Part shown: in pieces, positions 5,981 to 35,782 of the stretch
How positions within the stretch are numbered: the first letter of the stretch is position 1
Layout: the number at the start of each line of letters is the position of its first letter
Origin: a virus
Taxonomy: Duplodnaviria; Heunggongvirae; Uroviricota; Caudoviricetes
Length of the DNA: 64,000 nt
Virus record (IMG/VR): IMGVR_UViG_3300029305_004950
Coordinates: 255,627 to 319,626 of that record
Reading direction: 5' to 3' (one strand)
Made by a program: the position numbers and the translations under genes
The notes under the pieces: generated by a model
Databases searched by the model: none
The model's input: only the letters and a program-made list of their open reading frames with translations
Told to the model about the DNA's origin: nothing

Positions 5981-6193
5981 CATAGTTGTTAATACAAGTC
6001 TATTAAGCTTGCACCTTTTGAATTATGCTCTAGATTTTAAACTAGAGATCAGACTATATCTTCTATGTTTTCTATATCCAATGTATTTACATCGTACTAT
6101 ATAGTCGTTGAACCTTATTTAAAAGGCTGCTGATTGTACGTTAAGCATTTTCCAGCAATTAAGAAAATTTAGAGACACCTACCCTAAACTTTA
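5981..6193 (-). ncRNA. Minimal group I intron (213 nt, no ORF) in portal gene
   Basis: Minus-strand P AATTGCTGGAAA, Q AATCAGCAG, R GTTCAACGACTA, S AAGATATAGTC; P1 AGACACU/GGUGUCU with U-G; terminal G at 5981. Confidence 0.9.
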
Positions 6194-6241
6194 AGTGTCT
6201 ATTTCAACAGGTTTTTGTCCTTCAACTACAGGAATGTAATA
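6194..6241 (-). CDS. Portal protein, 48-nt exon 2 (YYIPVVEGQKPVEIDT)
   Basis: Joining gives FQD-YYIPVVEGQKPVEIDT-IPG, matching the T4 gp20 motif DYWL...EVDTLPG in frame. Confidence 0.88.
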
Positions 6242-7342
6242 CTTTGCTTATTATTTCAGAGTTTGTTAAACTCTAAACTCATATTTTCATATGAGAATAG
6301 ACTATATCTTCAACTATCTTTATAGTTGTTTCATACAGAGTATACAACTTATATACTACATAGTCTTTGAACCTTTTATAAGGCTGCTGATTGATCTGTC
6401 AAGTATTTCTTCTAGATTTTTATAATCTTTTCTATCAAATCTTAGAAGAGTTATTCCATTATTTTTACAATATTCGTCTTTTATCTGATCTCTAATTTTG
6501 GTGATTTTCAAACTTTCAGGATCTTTATTCCATCCTTTTTTATGTTGCTCACCATCAAATTCAATTGCAATATTATAATCTGGTAAATAAAAATCTAATC
6601 TTAATTTTTCGATATAAACCAAATCGTCAAACTTCTTTTCTGAAACAAAATTAAAATTTTTTGATTCTAAGAATGATTGAATCTTTTCTTCAGCTCTAGA
6701 ACCATGTCTACATCCACATCCATATCCTGCTTTAAAATTGTAATACATTGTTTCATAAAGATGTTTACAATAAGGACATAATAAACGTAGTTTATATCCT
6801 TTTTCAGACATTTGAATTATTGATTTATTTATATCATCATCAAAAAAATCATAATTACTATTATTAACAAATTCTATTATTTCTTTTCTTTTATTAATTT
6901 CTTTACTTTTATTTACACGTTTTAATTTACAATCAAATTCTGGACATCTTGATCCTTTTTTGAATTTATCAAATCTTACTATATAATCACCATGTCCACA
7001 TTTATCATTAGTTTTTATAAAAAGACGATTATGTTTTGATTTAGAATCTTCTTCTAATTTATAAAGACATTCAAAATATCTATCGGACTCATTTATTTCT
7101 AATAAATGATCTTTAATAGCTTTAATGTCTTTTATAATTCGATTTTCAGAACAAACTATATCGGAATCAAATTTTACTATAATTCCATCAATAATTTTAT
7201 TTATCATAAAACTGCCCCCTAGAAACTATTTTTAATAAATTGTTGTTTCTAGTACCCAGTTTTAAATATACTTGTACAGATTTTTCCAGCAATTCTTGAA
7301 ATAATTCTCTATACTATCACTAATATAGACGACTATTATTTA
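6242..7342 (-). mobile_element. Group I intron (1101 nt) with endonuclease ORF, in portal gene
   Basis: P ~7282-7294, Q ~6383-6392, R ~6361-6372, S ~6300-6311; exon 1 ends in U (GAU) and the intron ends in G at 6242. Confidence 0.9.
6356..7207 (-). CDS. Intron-encoded putative homing endonuclease (Zn-binding repeats plus Vsr/DUF559-like PD-(D/E)xK domain)
   Basis: CGH...RCP and CPYCKH...GYGCGC modules; SRAEEKI...LRLDFYLPDYNIAIEFDGEQH...D.IKDEYC..NGITLLR. Confidence 0.85.
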   Translation of the reverse strand: MINKIIDGIIVKFDSDIVCSENRIIKDIKAIKDHLLEINESDRYFECLYKLEEDSKSKHNRLFIKTNDKCGHGDYIVRFDKFKKGSRCPEFDCKLKRVNKSKEINKRKEIIEFVNNSNYDFFDDDINKSIIQMSEKGYKLRLLCPYCKHLYETMYYNFKAGYGCGCRHGSRAEEKIQSFLESKNFNFVSEKKFDDLVYIEKLRLDFYLPDYNIAIEFDGEQHKKGWNKDPESLKITKIRDQIKDEYCKNNGITLLRFDRKDYKNLEEILDRSISSLIKGSKTM

Positions 7343-21998: not shown

Positions 21999-22047
21999 AT
22001 AATAAATTCTATAAAAAGAATATATAAATAAAAGAAAAGTAAAAATT

Positions 22048-22079
22048 CGTAATTTGAAAAATTATAGGTATATATTATA
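22048..22079 (+). promoter_or_regulatory. Early-type promoter motif CGTAATTTGAAA...TATATATTATA
   Basis: Near-identical copy at 24216-24247 and core copy at 26690-26700; TATATT-type cores are the early promoters of phiKZ/AR9-like phages. Confidence 0.65.
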
Positions 22080-22108
22080 CCTATAGAAAAATAAAAGGAG
22101 AAGACTAT

Positions 22109-22738
22109 ATGAACTTTATTCACTTATATACTACTGAACGTCCATATTCAGCAATATCTTTCGACTGTGATACTTATACCTTTATTGTTCATCATTATAA
22201 CCGACGTAAACCATATGGAGGATTTTATTTTAGTTCTTTTGAAAGTCGTATTAGCTTTGAAGGATTTATTAAAGAATTTTTACCTGAGTTTATTGAAAGA
22301 ACAAATCTTAATCATTTAAAAAATTTGATAAAAGAAAATATCAAAGATGGTATGAATATAGATGAATTGAAAAAAATTATTTATAAAATTTCTTTACAAG
22401 ATCCAATATTTTTCATGCATAAAACTAAACTTAATGAAATTGTATCATATCCTATGGTTTATATTGAAAATACAATAGAAAAAATAGAGGATTTTGATTT
22501 CATAAAGGTAAAATTTTTCATGAAAAAGAATAATGATGAAAAACCTGATTTCAATAAGTTTAGAGAAAATATCATCAAAAATAAAAAATTCTTAACTAAA
22601 TGTGCTTTATTAGCTACTATTAGGGAAGTTAATAAAAAAGGTTATGATCTTTCAATAAACTTCTTTAAACTAGATGATATTACTTTATCTAAAAATGAAA
22701 ATAGTCTAATCTATACATTTAGTTTAGTAAATAGTTAG
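22109..22738 (+). CDS. Hypothetical early protein (free-standing cassette gene 1)
   Basis: AAGGAG RBS after early-type promoter. Confidence 0.7.
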   Translation: MNFIHLYTTERPYSAISFDCDTYTFIVHHYNRRKPYGGFYFSSFESRISFEGFIKEFLPEFIERTNLNHLKNLIKENIKDGMNIDELKKIIYKISLQDPIFFMHKTKLNEIVSYPMVYIENTIEKIEDFDFIKVKFFMKKNNDEKPDFNKFRENIIKNKKFLTKCALLATIREVNKKGYDLSINFFKLDDITLSKNENSLIYTFSLVNS

Positions 22739-22783
22739 AAATATACATCCTCACAGGCTTTTAAGCCAGAAAGGAAACATACA

Positions 22784-23071
22784 ATGGCTAATAAACTCAT
22801 CACTATTGAAGACATAGAAACTGCAAAAAATCTTGAATACCAGTTGATACATAATTTTTACCAATATTCTGCTATCAAATTTGATCATAAATTTGATGAC
22901 GATCAGTATTTCTTTACATATGAAGCTGGTAAATGCTATTTTGAGCATATTCAAGATGGACGTCCTTTTATAGAAAAGAAGGAAATTTCTTATCCTATGT
23001 GGACTAATGAAATTCTTCATAGAGTTGCTTTTTGCTATAATGCTGAACTTATTGAATTTAGCGAAGAGTAA
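22784..23071 (+). CDS. Hypothetical early protein (free-standing cassette gene 2)
   Basis: AAAGGA RBS; followed by the conserved 28-nt hairpin. Confidence 0.7.
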   Translation: MANKLITIEDIETAKNLEYQLIHNFYQYSAIKFDHKFDDDQYFFTYEAGKCYFEHIQDGRPFIEKKEISYPMWTNEILHRVAFCYNAELIEFSEE

Positions 23072-23083
23072 TCTTAATAAAAG

Positions 23084-23120
23084 TGTTAAGGGATCACTAT
23101 AAATGTCCCTTCTTTTTTTA
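23084..23120 (+). terminator. Conserved 28-nt hairpin element, copy 1
   Basis: TGTTAAGGGATCACTATAAATGTCCCTT followed by CTTTTTTT. Confidence 0.75.
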
Positions 23121-23171: not shown

Positions 23172-24079
23172 TTAGGCTTCCCAGATCTCTTTCATTTTAC
23201 GTTTCATCTCAATTATGAGCTTATTCGTATATAGCATGTTATAAGTATCTGTAGTCATACGAGATACAATACTCATAGGTGAATAGATTGCTAGTATATT
23301 TTCATCAGGATATCTTTCAGAGAAAGGTTCTTCTCCTTTAGGTAATACGTCACTAACGATAGTCTTAACTGCAGTACCATAAGTAACCTTGTCGCCAGTC
23401 TTTAATCTATCTCTATGTTTTACATAGAATTCGATTACAATACCTTCAAAATCTATACCTTTAATCTTTTCATCTTTAATCTGTTCAGTTCTGGGGAAGA
23501 AAGTAGATTTGTTATCAGTATGTTCTACTATCTTCTTTCTAGTGTTAACTTCTTTAGCATAATCATTTAGTAATTTCTGTATAGAATCAGAACAGATTTC
23601 TTTAGGTACATTATAGTAAACCTTGATATCTATAATCTCACCTGAATATTTTGCCTTCTTACTATCTTTACCCATTTCTTCTACGAAACTAGCAAAATCA
23701 TCGTTATCTAAACTATCTAGAATCTGATTAGCAGCAGCATCTTCAAAAGTATGCTCAAACGTAATCAGAGATTCACTAGCTTTGATATGCTGATGTTTCT
23801 TTGCCATGTAAAGAATGTTAGTATTAGGCGTTAGATTTACAGTAGATACCATAGTAATGTAACTAGACATACCTTCAGAAATCTCATCAGTAATAACAGA
23901 GGAGTCTTCTAGAGTATAATCGCCCTGTGCAATAGCTACTTTTGCTAGATAGCCTTGAGTGTAAGTAATACTATCAGGTTTATTACCTAAGAAGAAATTA
24001 CTGTTTTTAGCTAAGATATCATCTTTTTTGAATTTTTGACCTTCTTTGAAAAGTAGATCTTTCTTATTGGAAATGTAAA
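23172..24079 (-). CDS. RNA polymerase beta subunit, exon 3
   Basis: Open frame upstream of the ORF-track start gives FYISNKKDLLFKEGQKF...ILA...GDYTLEDSSV (GYNFEDS motif) and later GDKVTYGTAVKT (GDK motif). Confidence 0.88.
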
Positions 24080-24280
24080 CATTTTGTATTTGTATAGAGT
24101 CATTACTTCTATAACTACTAAGTTATTACAACTTAGATTAGACTATATCTTATTGTACTTTCCTATTATACAATCATTTGACTGCAATATAGTCGTTGAA
24201 CTTATCTTAAAAATACGTAATTTGAAATTTTATGAATATATATTATAAATGTGTAATAAAGCTAAAAGGGAGAACTATTT

Positions 24281-24727
24281 ATGACAAGTATATTTTATAA
24301 ATTCTACTATTTTGAAAGAGCAATTTATAAACTCGACAAAGAACGTATCATTTTCTTTGTAATAGATAAATCGATATATCCTAACGTTGTAGAATCATTC
24401 TCTGTAACAAAAATTGATAAAATAAGTTTAGGAGCATACGAAGATAGTATTAAACTTAATCTAGCAGGAGCTATTAGACTACTTAGAAACTTTATCAACT
24501 ATAATCTCTGTAAAGATAAACCTCTTAATGATACTACTCTACGTAGAATTAAGTATGCAAAAAAGTTGAAAGATAAACTAATCAAAGAAAGTATCTATAG
24601 TAATCTTAAAAACGAAATCTTTACAGAATTTTACTATCCAGTAATCTATGATGATGTAATCAGTACATCATCTTTAAACAGAATAGTAGATGCTTATAAT
24701 GATTACATTCAAAGTGAGATTTTTTAA
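24281..24727 (+). CDS. Intron cargo gene 1, hypothetical
   Basis: GGGAG RBS after the promoter at 24216-24247; no nuclease motif seen. Confidence 0.75.
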   Translation: MTSIFYKFYYFERAIYKLDKERIIFFVIDKSIYPNVVESFSVTKIDKISLGAYEDSIKLNLAGAIRLLRNFINYNLCKDKPLNDTTLRRIKYAKKLKDKLIKESIYSNLKNEIFTEFYYPVIYDDVISTSSLNRIVDAYNDYIQSEIF

Positions 24728-24748
24728 TTACAAAGAGGAGACTAGATA

Positions 24749-25105
24749 ATGAACAACACTAAAAATGGTCATATCTTCATGAATCTTATTGGTAATCCGA
24801 CTAAACAAGGTTTCAGTTGCTTAAGCACTGGATATGGTTATCGTGCTTATGTATCCACTACAGACAGATTCATCAATGACCTTTTCAAAGAAATCTGTAT
24901 GTGGGGCGGTGCTACCGATACCTACGAAACTAGAGATGGACGTTTCTACAATCATTATGAACTGGATTGTAGAGATAAGGCTTTCTTTAAATCTGATACT
25001 TTCAAAAGAATCTGTCAGAGACATCACATTGATCTGGAAATCTATGAAGATGGAAATAATAGCCAAGTTTTTAGAGATTTCTTTGATCAGATGAAGCGTA
25101 GATAA
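24749..25105 (+). CDS. Intron cargo gene 2, hypothetical
   Basis: GAGGAG RBS; phage-like codon usage. Confidence 0.8.
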   Translation: MNNTKNGHIFMNLIGNPTKQGFSCLSTGYGYRAYVSTTDRFINDLFKEICMWGGATDTYETRDGRFYNHYELDCRDKAFFKSDTFKRICQRHHIDLEIYEDGNNSQVFRDFFDQMKRR

Positions 25106-25119
25106 CAAATCTAGCAGAG

Positions 25120-25147
25120 TGTTAAGAGATCACTATAAATGTCTCTT
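25120..25147 (+). terminator. Conserved 28-nt hairpin element, copy 2 (compensatory A-U pair)
   Basis: TGTTAAGAGATCACTATAAATGTCTCTT. Confidence 0.7.
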
Positions 25148-25180
25148 TTAGTTTTTATAATAAAGGAGAATTTACATATT

Positions 25181-25720
25181 ATGTCTACTAATAAAACTTT
25201 TAATATCGAACTCACTCCCCAAGAAGTCTATCTTCTTTATGAAGCCATGTGTGCCAGTATCTATTCTAACCAAGACATGATTAAGTTAGCAAATGGCACG
25301 TATGATCCTAATCCCGATCAAAAGACTATAAAATGTTTCGAAGATAATGCAAAACTATTTGTAAGATTTTCTGAAATTCTTTGCCCAGATGAAGATCCTA
25401 TTGAAGACTACATCGATACATTTGGTTTTATGGATTTTGAAAAAGAATTTCCTATGTTCAAAGACGCATTAACCGAAAAACTTTATGATGTAACTCTGAA
25501 ATATCAAGATGCGTGTACTGGAAAAGAATCTATTTTTCATCGTACCGTATCTAGCTGTACAGAATTTGATGCAAAACAAGAAGCCATTGAATTACATACT
25601 GCTAAGTTTGGAAGTCTTAGAGAAATTAGGTTTGAATCCGCTATTATTTATAAAGATTTATTTCATTATAACGTAAAAGGATGTTATGAAGCCATTTCTG
25701 CTGTACCACAAGATACATAA
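25181..25720 (+). CDS. Intron cargo gene 3, hypothetical
   Basis: AAGGAG RBS before ATG 25181. Confidence 0.78.
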   Translation: MSTNKTFNIELTPQEVYLLYEAMCASIYSNQDMIKLANGTYDPNPDQKTIKCFEDNAKLFVRFSEILCPDEDPIEDYIDTFGFMDFEKEFPMFKDALTEKLYDVTLKYQDACTGKESIFHRTVSSCTEFDAKQEAIELHTAKFGSLREIRFESAIIYKDLFHYNVKGCYEAISAVPQDT

Positions 25721-25741
25721 AAAGAAAAGGAGATTTTCACT

Positions 25742-25948
25742 ATGATGAATACAACTATTAGAGATACTACTGAGAATATAAGATTTTTTGATCTAATTGA
25801 AACTGCAATTGATAAATTAGAGCAAGCAGTAAGTAATATCTCATATCCTGCATTTCCTCATATAAACAAAGATGTCGCTGAAAAAATTGGAAAAACTATT
25901 GCTATTCTCTATGATGTTTTAAATTCTGATATCTATAAACCTATTTAA
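25742..25948 (+). CDS. Intron cargo gene 4, hypothetical
   Basis: AAGAAAAGGAGATTTT RBS. Confidence 0.72.
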   Translation: MMNTTIRDTTENIRFFDLIETAIDKLEQAVSNISYPAFPHINKDVAEKIGKTIAILYDVLNSDIYKPI

Positions 25949-25981
25949 TCCAAAAATAAATAAGAAAAGGAGATTTTAATC

Positions 25982-26119
25982 ATGAAAAACAACACCAAGA
26001 AAGTCATTAAGGAAATCGTTTATATTACTTCTCTCTTTGCAACTGCATATGCTGCTGGATTGGCTGTAAGTCAGTTCTTTCAGAAAGTAATTCACCCCTT
26101 TATGTTTAAGGATGAATAA
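25982..26119 (+). CDS. Intron cargo gene 5, 45-aa single-pass membrane peptide (not in ORF track)
   Basis: MKNNTKKVIKEIVYITSLFATAYAAGLAVSQFFQKVIHPFMFKDE; same RBS string as gene 4; followed by a terminator. Confidence 0.75.
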   Translation: MKNNTKKVIKEIVYITSLFATAYAAGLAVSQFFQKVIHPFMFKDE

Positions 26120-26135
26120 TCCTTTTACTACATTC

Positions 26136-26170
26136 AAAGAGAGAGTCTTTTTAGGCTCTCTTTTTTTTTA
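26136..26170 (+). terminator. Intrinsic terminator closing the intron cassette
   Basis: AGAGAGTCT/AGGCTCTCT stem plus T run. Confidence 0.75.
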
Positions 26171-26259
26171 ATACATTTTTAAGATAAGCTGCTGATTATA
26201 CAATTTTTTGTATGTTCCAGCAATTAAGGAAATTTATAAAGGTGATCAATACAAATTTC

Positions 26260-26512
26260 AACCACCATTGGAGTTTTTACTAATACGTTCTGATATATCG
26301 ATTACATCAGAAGTACCATCTTTATAACGAATTATTGCTAATTCATTCTTTTCATCTACTTTTTCTACTACACCATCTTGCTCTGCTACTGATACAAAGT
26401 CAGATGATAGTGTATAAGGTAGTGTACGTTCAATACCAGAACCATATAAGGCTCTAGATTGTTTTTCAGTGGGAACTATATGTTTCGCTTGCTGCGTTTG
26501 CATTCCGATTCT
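26260..26512 (-). CDS. RNA polymerase beta subunit, exon 2
   Basis: Joining gives HADPP-RIGMQTQQAKHIVP, equivalent to beta HDDANRALMGANMQRQAVP, followed by GSGIE. Confidence 0.9.
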
Positions 26513-26745
26513 CAATATCTTCCTTGTAGAACTTAAAACTACAAGCGTTGTCTTAACAACTGCTCTATTATAAAATAGAGAGGAGACTATATCAAGATTC
26601 TATTATGAATCTTCTCTTATTTCCATTCTAGAGTTAGAATGTACTAATTAGTCGTTGAACTATAAAAATGTAAAGTGTAAAATTTTAATTATATATTATA
26701 TTTATAGTATATTTTAATTATAATTTAGAAAGGTTGTAAAGTTTT

Positions 26746-27939
26746 ATGAACAAAGGACGAAAATTTAATTTATGGACAGAGGAGGAAGTAGCTATCCTTA
26801 AGGAAAAATATCCTACACAAGGATCTAATATTCCTGAATTACTTAAGACACATACTAATTGTGCTATTAAAGCTGAAGCTCATAAACTAAATTTAGTTAA
26901 TTTACCTAAAGGTAGTTCTTGGACTGAGGAGGAAGTAGCTATCCTTAAGGAAAAATATCCCACACAAGGATCTAATATTCCTGAATTACTTAAGACTCGT
27001 ACTAAAATGGCTATTAATAGTGCTGCATTTGAATTCGGTTTAACTAGTGAAAAAAATCCTTGGACAGAGGAGGAAGTAGCTATCCTTAAGGAAAAATATC
27101 CTACACAAGGATCTAATATTCCTGAATTACTTAAGAAACGAACTGCTGATAAAATTCGTAGTAAAGCAAGTATACTAAAAATACGGAAAATCGAACCAGT
27201 TAAAATTAATCCAAAACTTAATCCTTGGACAGAGGAGGAAGTAGCTATCCTTAAGGAAAAATATCCTACACAAGGTCCTGATATTCCTGAATTACTTAAG
27301 AAACGAACTAAAACATCTATTCGACATAAAGCAGTTAGATTAAATTTAAGTGAAGAAAAAGGTAATCCTTGGACAGAGGAGGAAGTAGCTATCCTTAAGG
27401 AAAAATATCCTACACAAGGATCTAATATTCCTGAATTACTTAAGACACATACTAGACAGTCAATTGTAACTAAGTCAAATTATCTGTGTTTAATTAATAG
27501 ATTAATTAATCCTTGGACAGAGGAGGAAGTAGCTATCCTTAAGGAAAAATATCCTACACAAGGATCTAATATTCCTGAATTACTTAAGACACATACTAAT
27601 CAGGCAATTCAGATTAAGGCTACTGAATATAATGTAACTAATAAAGTAAATCCTTGGACAGAGGAGGAAGTAGCTATCCTTAAGGAAAAATATCCTACAC
27701 AAGGATCTAATATTCCTGAATTACTTAAGGCTCGTACTATTAATAGTATTAGGGATAAAGCAATAGTACTGAATTTAGATAAGGTAAAAATTCATTGTTC
27801 GTGGACCGATGAGGAAGTAGCTATCCTTAAGGAAAAATATCCTACACAAGGTCCTGATATTCCTGAATTACTTAAAACACATAAGTCCACTAAGAATATT
27901 AGAGCCAAAGCAAATTCATTAAAAATTTATAAACTTTAA
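26746..27939 (+). CDS. Eight-repeat Myb/SANT-like helix-turn-helix protein (intron cargo)
   Basis: 8x WTEEEVAILKEKYPTQG(SN/PD)IPELLK followed by a variable x(R/H)TxxxIxxKAxxL helix. Confidence 0.8.
   Translation: MNKGRKFNLWTEEEVAILKEKYPTQGSNIPELLKTHTNCAIKAEAHKLNLVNLPKGSSWTEEEVAILKEKYPTQGSNIPELLKTRTKMAINSAAFEFGLTSEKNPWTEEEVAILKEKYPTQGSNIPELLKKRTADKIRSKASILKIRKIEPVKINPKLNPWTEEEVAILKEKYPTQGPDIPELLKKRTKTSIRHKAVRLNLSEEKGNPWTEEEVAILKEKYPTQGSNIPELLKTHTRQSIVTKSNYLCLINRLINPWTEEEVAILKEKYPTQGSNIPELLKTHTNQAIQIKATEYNVTNKVNPWTEEEVAILKEKYPTQGSNIPELLKARTINSIRDKAIVLNLDKVKIHCSWTDEEVAILKEKYPTQGPDIPELLKTHKSTKNIRAKANSLKIYKL
26773..27880 (+). repeat. Coding tandem array: ~75-nt near-identical blocks alternating with unique segments
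   Basis: Unit starts at 26773, 26920, 27061, 27226, 27370, 27514, 27655, 27802 (periods 147,141,165,144,144,141,147, all multiples of 3). Confidence 0.95.
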
Positions 27940-27950
27940 TTTTAATATAC

Positions 27951-27985
27951 TGTTAAGGGATCAGTATAAATGTCCCTTCTTTTTT
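27951..27985 (+). terminator. Conserved 28-nt hairpin element, copy 3
   Basis: TGTTAAGGGATCAGTATAAATGTCCCTT followed by CTTTTTT. Confidence 0.75.
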
Positions 27986-28075
27986 ACATTTTTATAGCTG
28001 CTGATTATACTTTCTTAATATTTTCCAGCAATTAAAGAGATTTCCTCAAACAAAATTGAGGCCCAGATTTATTTT

Positions 28076-31000
28076 AGGTGGATCGGCATGTAAACTAGTA
28101 TAACATGATAATAGTTCACCAGCTGTCAACATGTTAGTTGCAGCTAAATCATTTACATCAGTATTATTATCAATAAAACCTAAGTTATTAGTAATCTTAG
28201 GACTATAGGAAAGCTGACGAGTAACACCAACTTTATTACTATCGGGGGAACTGATACCCAATAATCCAACCATAGATTGATCATAAGATCTCATCTGAGG
28301 GGTAAAGGCATCATCTAGGTTCGTACCTCCAATACCCTTATAAGTTGTTGAACCAAGTCTTTCAATTTCTAATACAGGACTTAAAGTTGAGTATGCTTCA
28401 ACGATAGGTGATTCTACTAGTTTCTTTATTACAGCATCTGGACTGTGTAAAGAAATTTTACGATCTTTATAACCAGATTTATAAGCATCTTTATATTCTC
28501 TTACTGCTTCAGACAGTACATCATATAAAGTTGCATTAACAGTTTCAATACTACGTAAACGATAGTTTTCCATACTATTAGCATTAACATAACTGTTATT
28601 GTCTAATAGAGTATTGCAATACAGTAAAACTCCTAGTAAGTCACTAGGTAGCTTCATATACTCTAGAATTTCCTTAGTCTTAGGATCTAGTATGAAATTC
28701 AAAGTATTTTGGAAACCTTTTGCTAGATTTCGTTTACCATAACGTAAATCGAAATACTCAATATAGATTTCCTTAGAATTCATTTGAGAGAATTCTACTT
28801 CTCTTAAGAATGGAATATCGTTTATACCATTCATAAAGAGACTATTTCTTAGAGGTGTAGACTTATAGTTCAGATAACCATCTTTGAATCTTATAGATGA
28901 CCATAGAGATTGTTCACTTTCATCTACTTGCTTCTTTTTTTCTGAAAGTTCATACTCTATACCATATCTTATCATAACGTTCTCTAAACCAAAATAGAAA
29001 CCTGTTAAAATAGCCAAAGGTATCATAGTACCAGCTACTTTAGTTCTAACATACATGAACTTAGTAGAAGTTTTTTGAGTTAGAAGTTTCTTATAAAGGT
29101 CATCATATCCATGAATCTTAAAGATATCTAAGAATAGGTCAAAGATAGAATTACGAGTAGTTAAAGTTTCAACAATACTAGTTGCTTCATTTAAAACTAC
29201 TTTATAAGAGTTAACTAATCCAGTTTCAGTATTGATAGTAAAAATCATTGAATTTCCTTTAAGAGCACCTAATAAGTACTCATTTTCAGGTATACTATCA
29301 TCTACTGCATAATCTAAGAATTCTGCTACTTCTGCATTAACTGTCTCTCTATTAAAGGAAAAGAAAACATTGTCGTTAAAAGTAAAGTTAAGCATATACT
29401 TAGAAATCTCATCGTATTCCATTATCGTCTGATACTTGGAATTGATAGTAACACAATTACCTAGCTTTACTTTAATACTTCCTTTATGATTAGGAGCATC
29501 TTTTAGAATAAAGTTCTTTAGCTTATCAGAGTTAGAAGATAGCTTCTGATTAAATCTCCAAAAGAACATCTTGTTCTTATCAGTAGAAATAGAAACTTCG
29601 TTTGGCTTATTCTTAGTTATAGGAAGTTTCATTAACTGCTTACCTATAGAAATCTTATGGTCATTTAGATACATGAATGAGTTATCATAAATGATAGGCA
29701 TTTGGATGTTAACTAAATGCTTATTACCCCAACCATCTTCATAGGTAACCTTTATTAGTTCTTTTTTATCTAACTCAGTAGAAATATCTTCTCTAGATAG
29801 GTTAGTAACATAGATAGGACATTCAGGGTCATCATTAAAAGCAGATAGAACCTTTATCAAGTCTCTATCCTTTTGATTTTTAACATAGTTTCTATCTAAA
29901 TCTTTTAGAGTACATTTCTTGACTTCATCATTCAATGTATCTATCTTGATATTTTTAGATTCTATGTTATGAACTGAATGTTCTTTTATAATACTATCTA
30001 TAGAAACAGGTTTTTCATCTTTCTTAAGAGAAACGTCTACTTTTTTCTGTTTTTCCTTAAGTTGTTCTACTTTTTTCTCAGAAACAGTAGTTTGATTATC
30101 ACCTAAGTCTATTAGATACTGTAAGAATTTTTTATCATTGTTCAAGCTATCCTCTAAGTCATTTTCATTATCATAAAGACTAGATTTAACGTTTATAGTT
30201 TTTTCTATCTTATCCATTAAATCTAAATCCTTACTACTATGAGAAAGTTTAGTGTTTAGACTTAATCCATTAACTATCTTTTCTTTAACAAGATTAGCTA
30301 TTTCAACATGAGGATCAGTATTAGAAATCTGCTTTAAAGAACTAGCTTTTATTTCATTACCAAAATCAATGTTTAGTTCTTTATTGATTCTATTAGTTAT
30401 TTCCTGATTAACGTCTCTTTCAATTAATTCAGTTTCTTCATCCTTATCTAGAGTAATACCATTAGAAATCTTATATAGAATGTTACAAAGTTTCTTAAAT
30501 CTTACTAAAGAGAATTTAGGATCATTAAAATCAACCTTAAACATTCTACTATTTCTAGAATCAGAAAAAACAAAATTGAACTTACTAAAGAATTCTTTAT
30601 CTAATGAATCATGTAATAGTAAATAGTATAACATGTTTTCAAAAGTGAATTCTCTACCAGTAGTAATCATCTTTTCTGGTATTACATGAATAAATACTTC
30701 AGGATAAACAAGAGTTTTTTGTAAGATTTCCTTTAAAAAAGGTTGGAAAAACTTAAGTTTACTTTCAAATGTTTTATAAGATTTGAAAGTATCATCAAAT
30801 AGTTTCCAATAAGGATAGGAATCAAAATAGGTATTATAGTTACCGTATAAATCTAGTTTAACTCGTTTAAATGTAACTGAAGGTAGTTTATTAGATATCT
30901 CTTTATATCTAATTTCTTGTAAATTTTCTATACGTTTACTTTTACATGATACTAGTCTATCAATCTTTGGGTAATAGTAACCTTTAATAAATTGCTTTAA

Positions 31001-31165
31001 GAAAAGATTAGAATTAACTTCTCTATAAATATTATCAGAACTAGTACTTGGAAAGAAAATCAATCTTCCTTTTTGTTTATTTGGATTCTCGTCATTACTA
31101 AAAAATAGATTATAATTTTTATATAGATAAAGGTTCTTATCTAATAAGTAGTAATTATATCTCAA
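28076..31165 (-). CDS. RNA polymerase beta subunit, exon 1 (spliced product ~1416 aa; probably virion RNAP type)
   Basis: MYLNDHKISIGKQL, RLRSIE, SPVLEIE, MRSYDQSMVGLL..SSPDSNKVGVTRQL (beta TPEGPNIGL region). Confidence 0.88.
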
Positions 31166-33416: not shown

Positions 33417-33491
33417 AGGGGTATCGCCAAGCGGTTAAGGCAATAGACTTTGACTCTATCATCGATGTTTCGAATACATCTACCCCTGCCA
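33417..33491 (+). tRNA. tRNA-Gln(UUG)
   Basis: Cloverleaf; anticodon arm ATAGA-CTTTGAC-TCTAT; encoded CCA. Confidence 0.92.
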
Positions 33492-33522
33492 ATAGAATTC
33501 TTGATAATTCTAAAATTTTTAT

Positions 33523-33614
33523 GGCAATGTACTCAAGTGGTCGAAGAGATCTGTCTTGAAAACAGAGAGTCGGTTAATAGCCGAGCGGAGATTCGAATTC
33601 TTCCATTGCCGCCA
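33523..33614 (+). tRNA. tRNA-Ser(UGA)
   Basis: TCTGT-CTTGAAA-ACAGA; long variable arm; G73; CCA. Confidence 0.92.
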
Positions 33615-33757
33615 AAAGTCTTGATAGTTTTTATACTATCAAGACTTTAATTTTTATAAAAATCAAGAAGGTAGCCTAGGAGTCATGAACCAAGGAGATA
33701 ATAAGCCTCTATCTTAAGCTTCTTGATTTTTAAATCTTACTGTAGAGGAGTAAAAAT

Positions 33758-34612
33758 ATGATAGATAAACAGAAAAGTTATAATCATTCCAAAGAATCTA
33801 ATAAAAGAAAAGCTGAACAGTTGGGAATGTCTTCTTATGGTAAAGCTAGAAATATTCTTAATAATTCTATTTTATTTAAATTAGTTAAAGATTCAGGAGA
33901 AAATATTTGTTATAGATGCAAACAACCTATAACTGATACTAAAAATTTAACAGTTGATCACAAAGAACCTTATTTATATTCTGAAAATGCTACTGAATTA
34001 TTTTTTGATTTAGATAATGTAGCATTTAGTCATAAAAGTTGTAATTGTAAAAATACTAGAAGTAATGATAAATCATTACGTCCTAATAATGAACTAAATC
34101 TTGATACTAATAAAATAAAAGAAAAATATTTAGGTATGTCTTATGGTAAAGCTAGAAATATTCTTAATAATGATTTACTATTTACATATGTAAAGAAAAC
34201 TGGTAATGATATCTGTTTTCAATGTGGTGAAAAAATTTTAAATAAAGATGAATTATCTGTAGAACATAAAGAACCTTTTATGTATTCTGATGATCCTAAA
34301 AAACTATTCTTTGATTTGAATAATGTAGCATTTAGTCATAAAAGTTGTAACTATAAAGCTAGTAGAAAGAACGAAGGACCTTGTATAAAGAAAATATCTA
34401 GAGATTCTATGATAAGCCAATCAGGTTATAAGGGAGTTCAGTATAGAACAAATAGACCTACTAAGTATTATTCCAAACTTGTTATAAATGGTAAATCGAT
34501 TTATATTGGTTCTAGTAATGATCCTAAAGAATTAGCTGAACTATATGATAAAAAGGCTATTGAATTATTAGGTGAAGAAGCAATTACTAATAAGAAACTA
34601 GGTTTATTATAA
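33758..34612 (+). CDS. Free-standing HNH-HNH-AP2 homing-type endonuclease in the tRNA cluster
   Basis: Two copies of C..C...VDH/VEH...NVAFSHKSCN and a C-terminal SGYKGVQY...YIG...AELYD AP2 domain. Confidence 0.85.
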   Translation: MIDKQKSYNHSKESNKRKAEQLGMSSYGKARNILNNSILFKLVKDSGENICYRCKQPITDTKNLTVDHKEPYLYSENATELFFDLDNVAFSHKSCNCKNTRSNDKSLRPNNELNLDTNKIKEKYLGMSYGKARNILNNDLLFTYVKKTGNDICFQCGEKILNKDELSVEHKEPFMYSDDPKKLFFDLNNVAFSHKSCNYKASRKNEGPCIKKISRDSMISQSGYKGVQYRTNRPTKYYSKLVINGKSIYIGSSNDPKELAELYDKKAIELLGEEAITNKKLGLL

Positions 34613-34775
34613 TTTACAATAAAAGTCTTGATATTTCATGAAAATTCAATTTTTATTATAAAAAAGATATAAATAAAAATTTATTACTACGAAAATTAAA
34701 TCAATTTTTAAGTATATATTTTTATAGTATAATGAAGAATTGGTATATGAACTATCAAGACTTTTCTTTACATAT

Positions 34776-34862
34776 GGGGGTATGGCGGAATAGGTAGACG
34801 CAACAGACTTAAAATCTGTCGATAGTGATATCGTGGGAATTCGAGTTTCCCTACCCCCACCA
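34776..34862 (+). tRNA. tRNA-Leu(UAA)
   Basis: ACAGA-CTTAAAA-TCTGT; variable arm; A73; CCA. Confidence 0.93.
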
Positions 34863-34910
34863 TAAAAGTTTAGTAAGTTTCGATTATATTGGAACTGACT
34901 AAACTAATAT

Positions 34911-34988
34911 CCTCCAGTAGGCTCAGCAGGTTAGAGCTTTCGACTTATAATCGAAGGGTCGGTGGTTCGATCCCACCCTGGAGGACCA
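34911..34988 (+). tRNA. tRNA-Ile(UAU)
   Basis: TTCGA-CTTATAA-TCGAA; acceptor CCTCCAG/CTGGAGG; A73; CCA. Confidence 0.88.
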
Positions 34989-35025
34989 TTACATATAATC
35001 TAGATTTTAATCTAGTATTTATAAA

Positions 35026-35321
35026 GCGAGGTTCGATTTACTTTAAAGTAATGGTACGGTAAGATTCCGTAGGAGTATTATACTCTAACGCTTATACTGA
35101 AATATAGTTTTTGCATCTGTATGAGTAGCTACATATAGATACATACTTCAACTATAGAGTAAGCGTCATAGGGTACTACGAAAGTGTACAAGTTAGGTAA
35201 ATGCTGACCTAGCGAAGGGGTAATTAATAAAAAAGTGCATCCTTGTAAGTTGGAGAATATAGAACTATAATATATGGCTGAAACGGACTATTATATTCTA
35301 TAGGTAAACTTTCACCCCTTT
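35026..35321 (+). ncRNA. Unassigned structured RNA(s) in the tRNA cluster
   Basis: Consecutive hairpins including a GAAA tetraloop and long closing stems; no ORF; GC higher than background. Confidence 0.55.
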
Positions 35322-35325
35322 AAAT

Positions 35326-35399
35326 GCAGGTGTAATTTAATGGTAAAATGACAGCCTTCCAAGCTGTATTTGGGGTTTCGATTACCCTCACCTGCTCCA
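35326..35399 (+). tRNA. tRNA-Gly(UCC)
   Basis: ACAGC-CTTCCAA-GCTGT; U73; CCA. Confidence 0.92.
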
Positions 35400-35402
35400 T
35401 AT

Positions 35403-35486
35403 GTTGTTATAGAGTTATAAAGCTGGATATGAGAGTTTTGATGGTATCTCAGTCATATAGCGTGTAAACCATTCTCTATAACAACC
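35403..35486 (+). ncRNA. Unassigned rod-like RNA between tRNA-Gly and tRNA-Ser
   Basis: GTTGTTATAGAG/CTCTATAACAAC closing stem with inner stems. Confidence 0.4.
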
Positions 35487-35494
35487 TTATATAA

Positions 35495-35585
35495 GGAGAG
35501 TTACCCAAGTGGTTGAAGGGGGCGGTCTACTAAACCGCTAGGACGTGAAAGCGTCGCAAGGTTTCGAATACCTTACTCTCCGCCA
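35495..35585 (+). tRNA. tRNA-Ser(ACU)
   Basis: GCGGT-CTACTAA-ACCGC; long variable arm; GGAGAGT acceptor; G73; CCA. Confidence 0.88.
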
Positions 35586-35627
35586 GAATTATTATAACTA
35601 GCATAAACTAGTTATTTTAATATAAAT

Positions 35628-35703
35628 GCTTCATTAGCTCAGTAGGTAGAGCATCTGACTGTTAATCAGAGGGTCGCAGGATCGAGGCCTGCATGAAGCG
35701 CCA
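35628..35703 (+). tRNA. tRNA-Asn(GUU)
   Basis: TCTGA-CTGTTAA-TCAGA; T-loop ATCGAGG; G73; CCA. Confidence 0.9.
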
Positions 35704-35706
35704 TAT

Positions 35707-35782
35707 GATCTGCTAGCTCAGTAGGTAGAGCACTGCCCTTTTAAGGCAGGTGTCCAGAGTTCGAGCCTCTGGCAGATCACCA
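35707..35782 (+). tRNA. tRNA-Lys(UUU)
   Basis: CTGCC-CTTTTAA-GGCAG; CCA. Confidence 0.92.

Follow-up and report, generated by a model that had tools for sequence, protein, structure and literature searches.

In IMG/VR record IMGVR_UViG_3300029305_004950 (319,626 bp; an AR9-like jumbo phage of ~320 kb) we analysed the terminal 64 kb, positions 255,627 to 319,626, referred to here as the window. We found that a gene for an RNA polymerase (RNAP) beta subunit is interrupted by a group I intron whose peripheral loop, L6a, holds five genes on the opposite strand together with a promoter and a terminator, and with no match to a nuclease family. Judged from the sequence, this structure is real and well supported. 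We put at about three in four the probability that the unit is transcribed early, that it is spliced out in cis with the intron late in infection with the help of a clamping helix, and that the loop is an exchangeable slot for accessory genes. In descriptions so far, phage group I introns are selfish elements whose cargo does not exceed a homing endonuclease. The value of the present case lies in the comparison of four states at one site and in the signs of cassette turnover that accompany it.

The split polymerase gene and its ribozyme

The interrupted gene matched three PHROG families of RNA polymerase beta (38251, 3148 and 14872) in a profile search. It lies on the minus strand as exon 1 (28076-31165, start codon approximate, covering all three families), an upstream group I intron (26513-28075), exon 2 (26260-26512, PHROG 14872 positions 1005-1088), the main intron of 2180 nt (24080-26259) and exon 3 (23172-24079, PHROG 14872 positions 1090-1392). 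Joining 26260|26259 with 24080|24079 gave one frame with a single terminal stop, and a product of 1416 amino acids (aa) once the upstream intron was also taken out. For the boundary between exon 1 and the upstream intron, three registers yield an identical peptide; the one at 28076 gives a U at the 5' splice site and a terminal G at 26513. We compared the product with 11 homologues. Seven full-length ones (1354-1413 aa) aligned gap-free across both junctions, and the other four are shorter records whose match stops at or just past the main-intron junction. At the DNA level, locus L053 is an intronless allele of the main-intron site, while the upstream intron is absent in a related phage, G001. 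The nearest named relatives of exon 3 were the Bacillus jumbo phages PBS1 and AR9 (49%). In AR9, the orthologue carries the annotation of a virion RNAP subunit, with a coding sequence of six joined pieces. By homology, the split gene would encode an essential virion enzyme.

Both halves of the ribozyme were found on the minus strand. The 5' half (26190-26266) contains P1, the 5' strand of P3, P4 and P5, and the 3' half (24080-24201) contains R, P7, P7.1, the 3' strand of P3, S, P9, P9.1 and the terminal G at 24080. Together with P6/P6a, these give the group I core of P3, P4, P6 and P7 built from the P, Q, R and S elements, including the G-binding pair in P7. P1 has seven pairs (26266-26260 / 26247-26241) with U.G at the 5' splice site and is retained in G001. 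Between P7 and P3 there is an additional seven-pair helix, P7.1 (24186-24169), which we take to be the mark of subgroup IA. There is no space for P2 or P8, as only 7-8 nt separate P3 from J8/7. Searched with Rfam RF00028, the main intron gave a 15.7-bit fragment against a threshold of 50, and we file it as a reduced group I variant on its sequence. At the gathering threshold, Rfam returned no group I match within the 64-kb window, nor in nine intron-bearing loci of the same genome. Five AR9 introns scored above the threshold (51-102 bits), and the AR9 intron cognate to ours scored 76 bits although it too is read as P8-less. We therefore regard the Rfam miss as a detection gap and not as evidence against the intron. 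With P2 and P8 missing from the core and Rfam blind to it, efficient self-splicing may need proteins. Both helices are also missing from several other introns of this genome (G000) and from AR9 (L004 6698-6998), and the entire compact G000 family escapes RF00028. A minimal group IA core would seem worth its own model.

The distance from Q to R, that is the length of L6a, is 1986 nt. At its base, the 5' arm of P6/P6a (26189-26174) pairs with the 3' arm (24200-24215) in the minimum free energy (MFE) fold of the full-length intron, forming 14 Watson-Crick pairs, or 16 counting G.U; none of 4809 random pairs of segments drawn from the insert attained 14 pairs. The distal eight nucleotides of the 3' arm (24208-24215) double, on the plus strand, as the start of the upstream element of the cargo promoter. 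The initial annotation of this DNA had proposed an intact ribozyme core whose removal restores the RNAP beta frame, with ~1.95 kb inserted between Q and R and clamped by a ~17-bp stem. The restored frame is borne out, being single and colinear with intronless homologues after removal in silico. The insert length agrees with our measurement, and the stem is refined to the 16 pairs above. As for the core, P, Q, R, S, P1 and the terminal G are in place, but P2 and P8 are missing and Rfam recovers only the fragment.

Assembled DNA from several sequencing runs bridges the junctions between core and cargo with 0-1 differences. Such contigs were found in runs X2 (24221-26192), X7 (25120-26435), X1 (24184-25151) and X3 (24407-26299 and 24184-24295), each covering part of the stretch. 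The runs holding matching DNA are animal feces metagenomes from 2018, which possibly belong to one campaign and may include the source sample. None of the 10 runs listed was an RNA run, which does not bear on expression. A pattern scan of metagenomes gave 12 loci, none of which matches either intron half, and a scan of genome contigs found no relative.

The opposite-strand cargo

Five plus-strand open reading frames (ORFs) of 148, 118, 179, 68 and 45 aa occupy 1689 of the 1958 nt of the loop. Every one of them has a ribosome-binding site (RBS) of the AGGAG/GGAG type, and their codon-usage score is positive (phage-like) in the annotated frame only. Ahead of them lies a predicted early promoter of the virion-RNAP type (24208-24253) with an upstream element, a core at 24235-24246 and a predicted +1 G at 24253. 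For its recognition we used the AR9 early consensus in a shortened form, as given in the portions of PMC5312081 available to us. The core matches this consensus at 12 of 12 positions, is followed by 6 nt and then by the G at 24253, and is one of four exact matches in the genome. Downstream, the unit is closed by an intrinsic terminator (26136-26170) consisting of a 13-pair hairpin (26136-26165; z -6.4) and a U-run. The idea that the orientation of the cargo follows a genome-wide early strand was rejected, as early motifs occur on both strands.

ORF2 (24749-25105), of 118 aa, belongs to a conserved alpha/beta family with 22 homologues at 52-71% identity, one of which, in phage G002, is a free-standing gene directly behind an early motif. 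ORF4 (25742-25948; 68 aa) has a homologue in the cargo of G001 (38% over 55 aa). ORF1 (24281-24727; 148 aa) and the acidic ORF3 (25181-25720) returned only their own record in the search of a large protein collection, which covered ORF1, ORF2 and ORF3. The start of ORF3 is most likely at 25181, giving 179 aa and correcting the first reading. ORF5 (25982-26119; 45 aa) is basic with one moderately hydrophobic stretch and, from its sequence, is a possible membrane peptide. Between ORF2 and ORF3 lies an internal terminator copy (25124-25147), likely a relic, in which the hairpin is kept and the U-run is broken.

None of the five ORFs matched a nuclease family in Pfam, PHROGs or NCBIfam, while family searches readily detected the true intron nucleases of the same genome. 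Motif searches of the cargo found no GIY-YIG, HNH or LAGLIDADG signature, and no intron-encoded homing endonuclease of the HNH, GIY-YIG, LAGLIDADG or PD-(D/E)xK/EDxHD kind was recovered. Fold searches were informative for ORF2 only. Its model (pLDDT 85) is alpha/beta and without a clear structural relative (best VIA Z 4.9); Foldseek gave no match at E<=0.001, and no nuclease family was among the rows listed, which does not exclude one, and a LAGLIDADG-like reading of ORF2 was not supported. The low-confidence model of ORF1 gave weak structural rows, LAGLIDADG clusters among them, with TM scores of 0.35-0.40, under our bar; its Atlas matches at 0.92 were LIC12162-like and serve as a lead only. 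For ORF3 the model was unusable (pLDDT 33), with an Atlas match that scored 0.78.

These results uphold most of what the initial annotation had said of the insert. Its promoter at 24216-24247 encloses the AR9-type core, its terminator is the strong hairpin described above, its five RBS-led ORFs stand with the start of ORF3 moved, and its statement that no endonuclease is encoded agrees with the family searches. Its guess that the genes serve host takeover or anti-defence drew no support from Pfam, PHROGs, NCBIfam or PADLOC; in the last of these, none of the five ORFs matched a defence protein, and nothing in these searches excludes anti-defence either.

Variation at the intron site and how the unit may work

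Four states were found at this one intron site: no intron (L053), an empty loop (AR9), five genes (here) and ~11 antisense genes (G001). At the identical codon, the AR9 intron measures 301 nt; its L6 is 26 nt long and, by inspection, its core is likewise P8-less. In G001 (L003; L002 is identical to it and L001 is a partial copy) the same intron has a loop of 5291 nt, in which we treated 11 ORFs as cargo, all on the opposite strand, with the sole early motif at the same loop edge. The ribozyme core is 90% identical between the two phages (199/221), as against 67% (54/81) of four-fold synonymous sites in exon 3. The 5' half with its clamp arm is identical at 79 of 86 positions and the 3' half at 120 of 135, P9 and P9.1 show paired changes, and the clamp runs A5:T5 here against A6:T6 in G001, its two arms carrying corresponding indels. 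Only one of the five cargo genes, ORF4, is common to both, and for two of the 11 cargo genes of G001, homologues stand in small-gene clusters of the present genome that contain no intron. In runs X2, X3 and X4, single low-depth contigs continue from the intron halves into different loop edges, in one case G001-like.

Since the cargo of G001 is mostly different and the AR9 loop is empty, the loop is likely a swappable slot for early accessory genes. The comparison of related phages that the initial annotation had proposed, which found the intron empty in AR9 and filled with another cluster in G001, together with the free-standing homologues and four further introns of the same layout, favours its picture of a landing pad for accessory genes. 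The series from absent through empty to five and ~11 genes suggests that such loops are nested variable islands of accessory genes inside essential genes.

The ends of the cassette recur elsewhere. The 45-nt promoter segment, which begins with the eight bases shared with P6a, is a repeated family whose best matches are two free-standing sites (37/45 and 36/45) and other intron cassettes. The 36/45 match heads a free-standing two-gene unit ~2 kb away (22040-23120, plus strand), which also shares its terminator family with the intron cassettes. One terminator family was found at the end of this unit (23107), of the cassette in intron 1 and of the G001 cassette, and inside both arrays. In both phages the internal copies keep the hairpin and have a broken U-run, whereas the terminal copies retain it, which suggests stepwise array growth. 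The five genes had been described as an operon; the opposite-strand unit stands as such, but it is probably a stepwise-grown array and not one designed operon. New modules would be added past old terminators, which would then decay, and recombination between the repeats of promoter and terminator, inside and outside introns, would bring in cassettes and exchange them, much as in the shuffling proposed for the PeSL elements of phage T4. Originally the slot may have been an endonuclease unit that had an early promoter of its own.

In the reading we prefer, plus-strand transcription by the injected virion polymerase would begin right after infection from the early promoter on the loop's 3' edge and end at the terminator on its 5' edge. 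At the late stage, the full gene would be transcribed along the minus strand by the non-virion polymerase; the ribozyme halves, ~2 kb apart, would be joined by the 16-pair P6/P6a helix, and the intron would splice in cis, the cargo leaving with it as non-coding antisense RNA. Given the opposite orientation and the split between early and late, the pre-mRNA would be spared the terminator and the ribosomes of the cargo. For AR9, the portions of PMC5312081 available to us state that the orthologous gene is late and that early transcription needs the injected virion polymerase only.

Several observations weigh against this reading. Splicing and cargo transcription are predictions from DNA, G001 is the one independent relative found with cargo at the main-intron site, and the recombination route is read from shared end sequences only. 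The core is without P2 and P8 and invisible to Rfam, though the cognate AR9 intron has the same reduced core. On the intron strand there is a hairpin with a weak U-run at 26117-26090, two stronger terminator candidates lie in the G001 insert, and a sibling intron, in the gene for a small RNAP subunit, has a full sense-strand terminator just before R, both here and in G001. In view of this last terminator, late read-through is an assumption.

Some of these features would fit a split intron, in which late transcription stops in the loop and restarts, the ribozyme halves then assembling in trans via P6a. The long clamp helix, the hairpin at 26117-26090, the stronger candidates in the 5.3-kb G001 loop and the full sense terminator inside the L6a of the sibling intron all agree with it, and the giant coral intron, back-spliced according to the parts of PMC6545197 available to us, is a precedent for removal other than in cis. 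However, the insert in the window has no intron-strand hairpin with at least 6 U in 8, and AR9-type late motifs on that strand occur at chance (2 against a shuffle mean of 1.8), with none near R. Gene order is colinear, 2 kb is an ordinary transcript length, and the terminator of the sibling intron abuts R, so that there is no room for a restart. We regard trans-splicing as unlikely. We think it slightly less likely again that the antisense unit is kept for regulation; early antisense transcription across the loop would then repress the late virion polymerase gene where its expression or splicing is premature, and the proteins would be secondary. Two cassettes of the same layout have no ORF at all (genome position 240325 and L056), the promoter upstream element overlaps the P6a arm, and the host genes are predicted to be late (polymerase, head protease, terminase). 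On the other hand, the antisense RNA is predicted to end at 26165 without entering the catalytic core, AR9 has the intron without cargo and other relatives lack it, coding sequence of phage-like codon use makes up most of the loop, and the cargo ranges from none to 11 genes.

That the locus is an assembly artefact, or a dead gene whose intron no longer splices and whose polymerase is broken, appears very improbable. The locus is known from DNA and its reduced core is unrecognised by Rfam, but contigs of several runs bridge the junctions, the independent phage G001 has the same layout, conservation is higher in the core than at synonymous sites, the three exons are all intact, and the enzyme is essential by homology. 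We give the least credence to the view that the ORFs are pieces of a decayed homing endonuclease in an ordinary mobile intron that is degenerating. The sub-threshold LAGLIDADG rows of the ORF1 model point that way, as do Myb-repeat ORFs of neighbouring introns, which match the N-terminal part only of an HNH PHROG. Against it, each cargo ORF has its own RBS, neither nuclease families nor motifs were detected, hhalign gave a probability of 0.4% against the LAGLIDADG ORF of the same genome, and ORF2 is an intact member of a conserved family that is free-standing elsewhere; for ORF2 and ORF4 decay is largely refuted.

Beyond the preferred reading of cis-spliced early cargo, we tentatively suggest a wider one, which we hold to be rather less than evenly probable. 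In this lineage, group I intron loops might be the hyperplastic regions of the genome: early cassettes that clamp themselves, part of P6a being the upstream element of their promoter, would move between introns and intergenic sites and reach operons of at least ten genes, a minimal P2/P8-less ribozyme would remove 2-5 kb from essential late mRNAs, and the cargo would let the intron persist without an endonuclease. This would be a testable answer to why endonuclease-free introns persist. If splicing holds, a very small ribozyme core tolerates inserts of 2-5 kb. For annotation there is a warning, as such genes look broken and their introns escape Rfam.

Other introns of the lineage and known systems

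A strict pattern found 14 introns in this genome, in addition to two of other layout. Eight of the 14 have an L6 of more than 100 nt, namely five with antisense cassettes, two with sense endonucleases and one with a sense non-coding cassette. The five antisense promoter-terminator cassettes are that of the main intron, two with Myb-repeat genes, one with a ~90-aa gene in terL and one without an ORF; the genes they interrupt (polymerase, head protease, terminase) are predicted to be late. Beyond P6, the five antisense loops have 10-15 contiguous pairs, compared with 3-6 in six empty loops. The introns inspected in the more distant G002, G003 and a Staphylococcus phage had empty loops or sense ORFs.

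The upstream intron of the RNAP beta gene has a 1336-nt L6a with an antisense gene for a 397-aa protein of Myb-like repeats (26746-27939, plus strand), with promoter and terminator. A second antisense Myb-repeat gene (G000:C1 238387-239603, L026) encodes 348 aa and is 49% identical to it. No nuclease domain was detected in either protein, and they are possibly DNA-binding remnants of endonucleases, or early regulators. The antisense gene in the terL introns (G000:C1 2591-3045, L028, and G001 L048 829-1113) encodes ~90 aa (94 aa in G001), with a hydrophobic N-terminus and an acidic tail. Antisense promoter-terminator cassettes without an ORF occupy L6a at G000:C1 240048-240292 (L026) and L056 2812-3125, in head-protease and terminase introns, and could be small RNAs or emptied slots. 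In the intron of the small RNAP subunit gene (G000:C1 173811-174019, L022, and L037 in G001) there is an early-like promoter on the same strand, then ~150-230 nt without an ORF or tRNA, then the full U-run terminator immediately before R, all kept in both phages. This cassette is possibly a small RNA gene, and its terminator implies read-through by the late polymerase. A tRNA search of five intron loci, the non-coding cassettes included, found none.

Large L6a inserts are known, and T4 td carries I-TevI there. Those phage group I introns whose peripheral loop carries a homing endonuclease share with the present intron an IA-type core, the interruption of an essential gene at a conserved motif and a large L6a insert, as far as the consulted parts of PMC3984707 and PMC12908238 describe them. 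Here, by contrast, there is no endonuclease, there are several genes on the opposite strand, and the cargo is exchanged with free-standing accessory genes. The nearest known system is that of AR9, whose virion RNAP beta gene g189 (RefSeq BI022_gp188) is orthologous; at the identical codon it has an intron, the core of which likewise lacks P2 and P8. Its splicing is known to us from the GenBank join and a passage of the Korn preprint. In another intron of the same late gene, AR9 g190 has its own early promoter, according to the portions of PMC5312081 available to us. Unlike our cargo, g190 is a single HNH endonuclease on the same strand, and the cognate AR9 loop is empty, whereas here five opposite-strand non-nuclease genes with a terminator vary between relatives.

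Ordinary genes in a group I peripheral loop are found in hexacoral ND5-717, which, in the sections of PMC6545197 available to us, holds ND1 and ND3 in anemones and 16 genes in corallimorphs. Its insert lies in P8 and comprises essential core genes on one strand except for an antisense ORF, it is inherited vertically, and its giant form is back-spliced; ours is in L6a, antisense, accessory and rapidly swapped. The T4 PeSL cassettes resemble the present ones in that recurring early-promoter and terminator elements surround non-essential genes of variable content, with shuffling by recombination proposed, and they are composite elements of a sigma70-like promoter and a stem-loop in intergenic hyperplastic regions (from the consulted parts of PMC2839356). 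Here the promoter and terminator are separate repeats, of phage-polymerase type and inside a ribozyme loop, and no composite promoter and stem-loop repeat flanks the variable genes; by analogy, the cassette may work like PeSL shuffling though it is no PeSL itself. IStrons (PMC3984707) also shelter non-standard coding cargo in a group I intron, and myxomycete nuclear introns carry antisense homing endonuclease genes (PMC9548176). In the parts of these sources available to us, such cargo serves mobility (a transposase, TnpB or a His-Cys endonuclease) and none is a multi-gene accessory unit.

The literature searched, which excludes subscription journals and supplements, described no phage group I intron that holds an antisense unit of several non-nuclease genes. 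A search of two recent phage-intron papers (PMC11878797 and PMC12350094) for 'antisense' and 'opposite' found none, and the sections seen of jumbo-phage reviews and of the Korn preprint mention introns and endonucleases only. The remark in the initial annotation that no such case had been described therefore agrees with the sources consulted, in part as extracts, for the combination as a whole, while single aspects have precedents in AR9 g190 and hexacoral ND5-717.

Three further observations concern neighbouring or related genes. In G002 (L035 2088-5269), at least five group I introns lie close together in one gene, which adjoins the free-standing ORF2 homologue. At 6060-7340 of the window (L025), a virion structural gene has two introns, one of which has an endonuclease ORF between P and Q, in L5 and not in L6a. 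Finally, a cluster of at least seven tRNA genes lies at 33417-35779 of the window.

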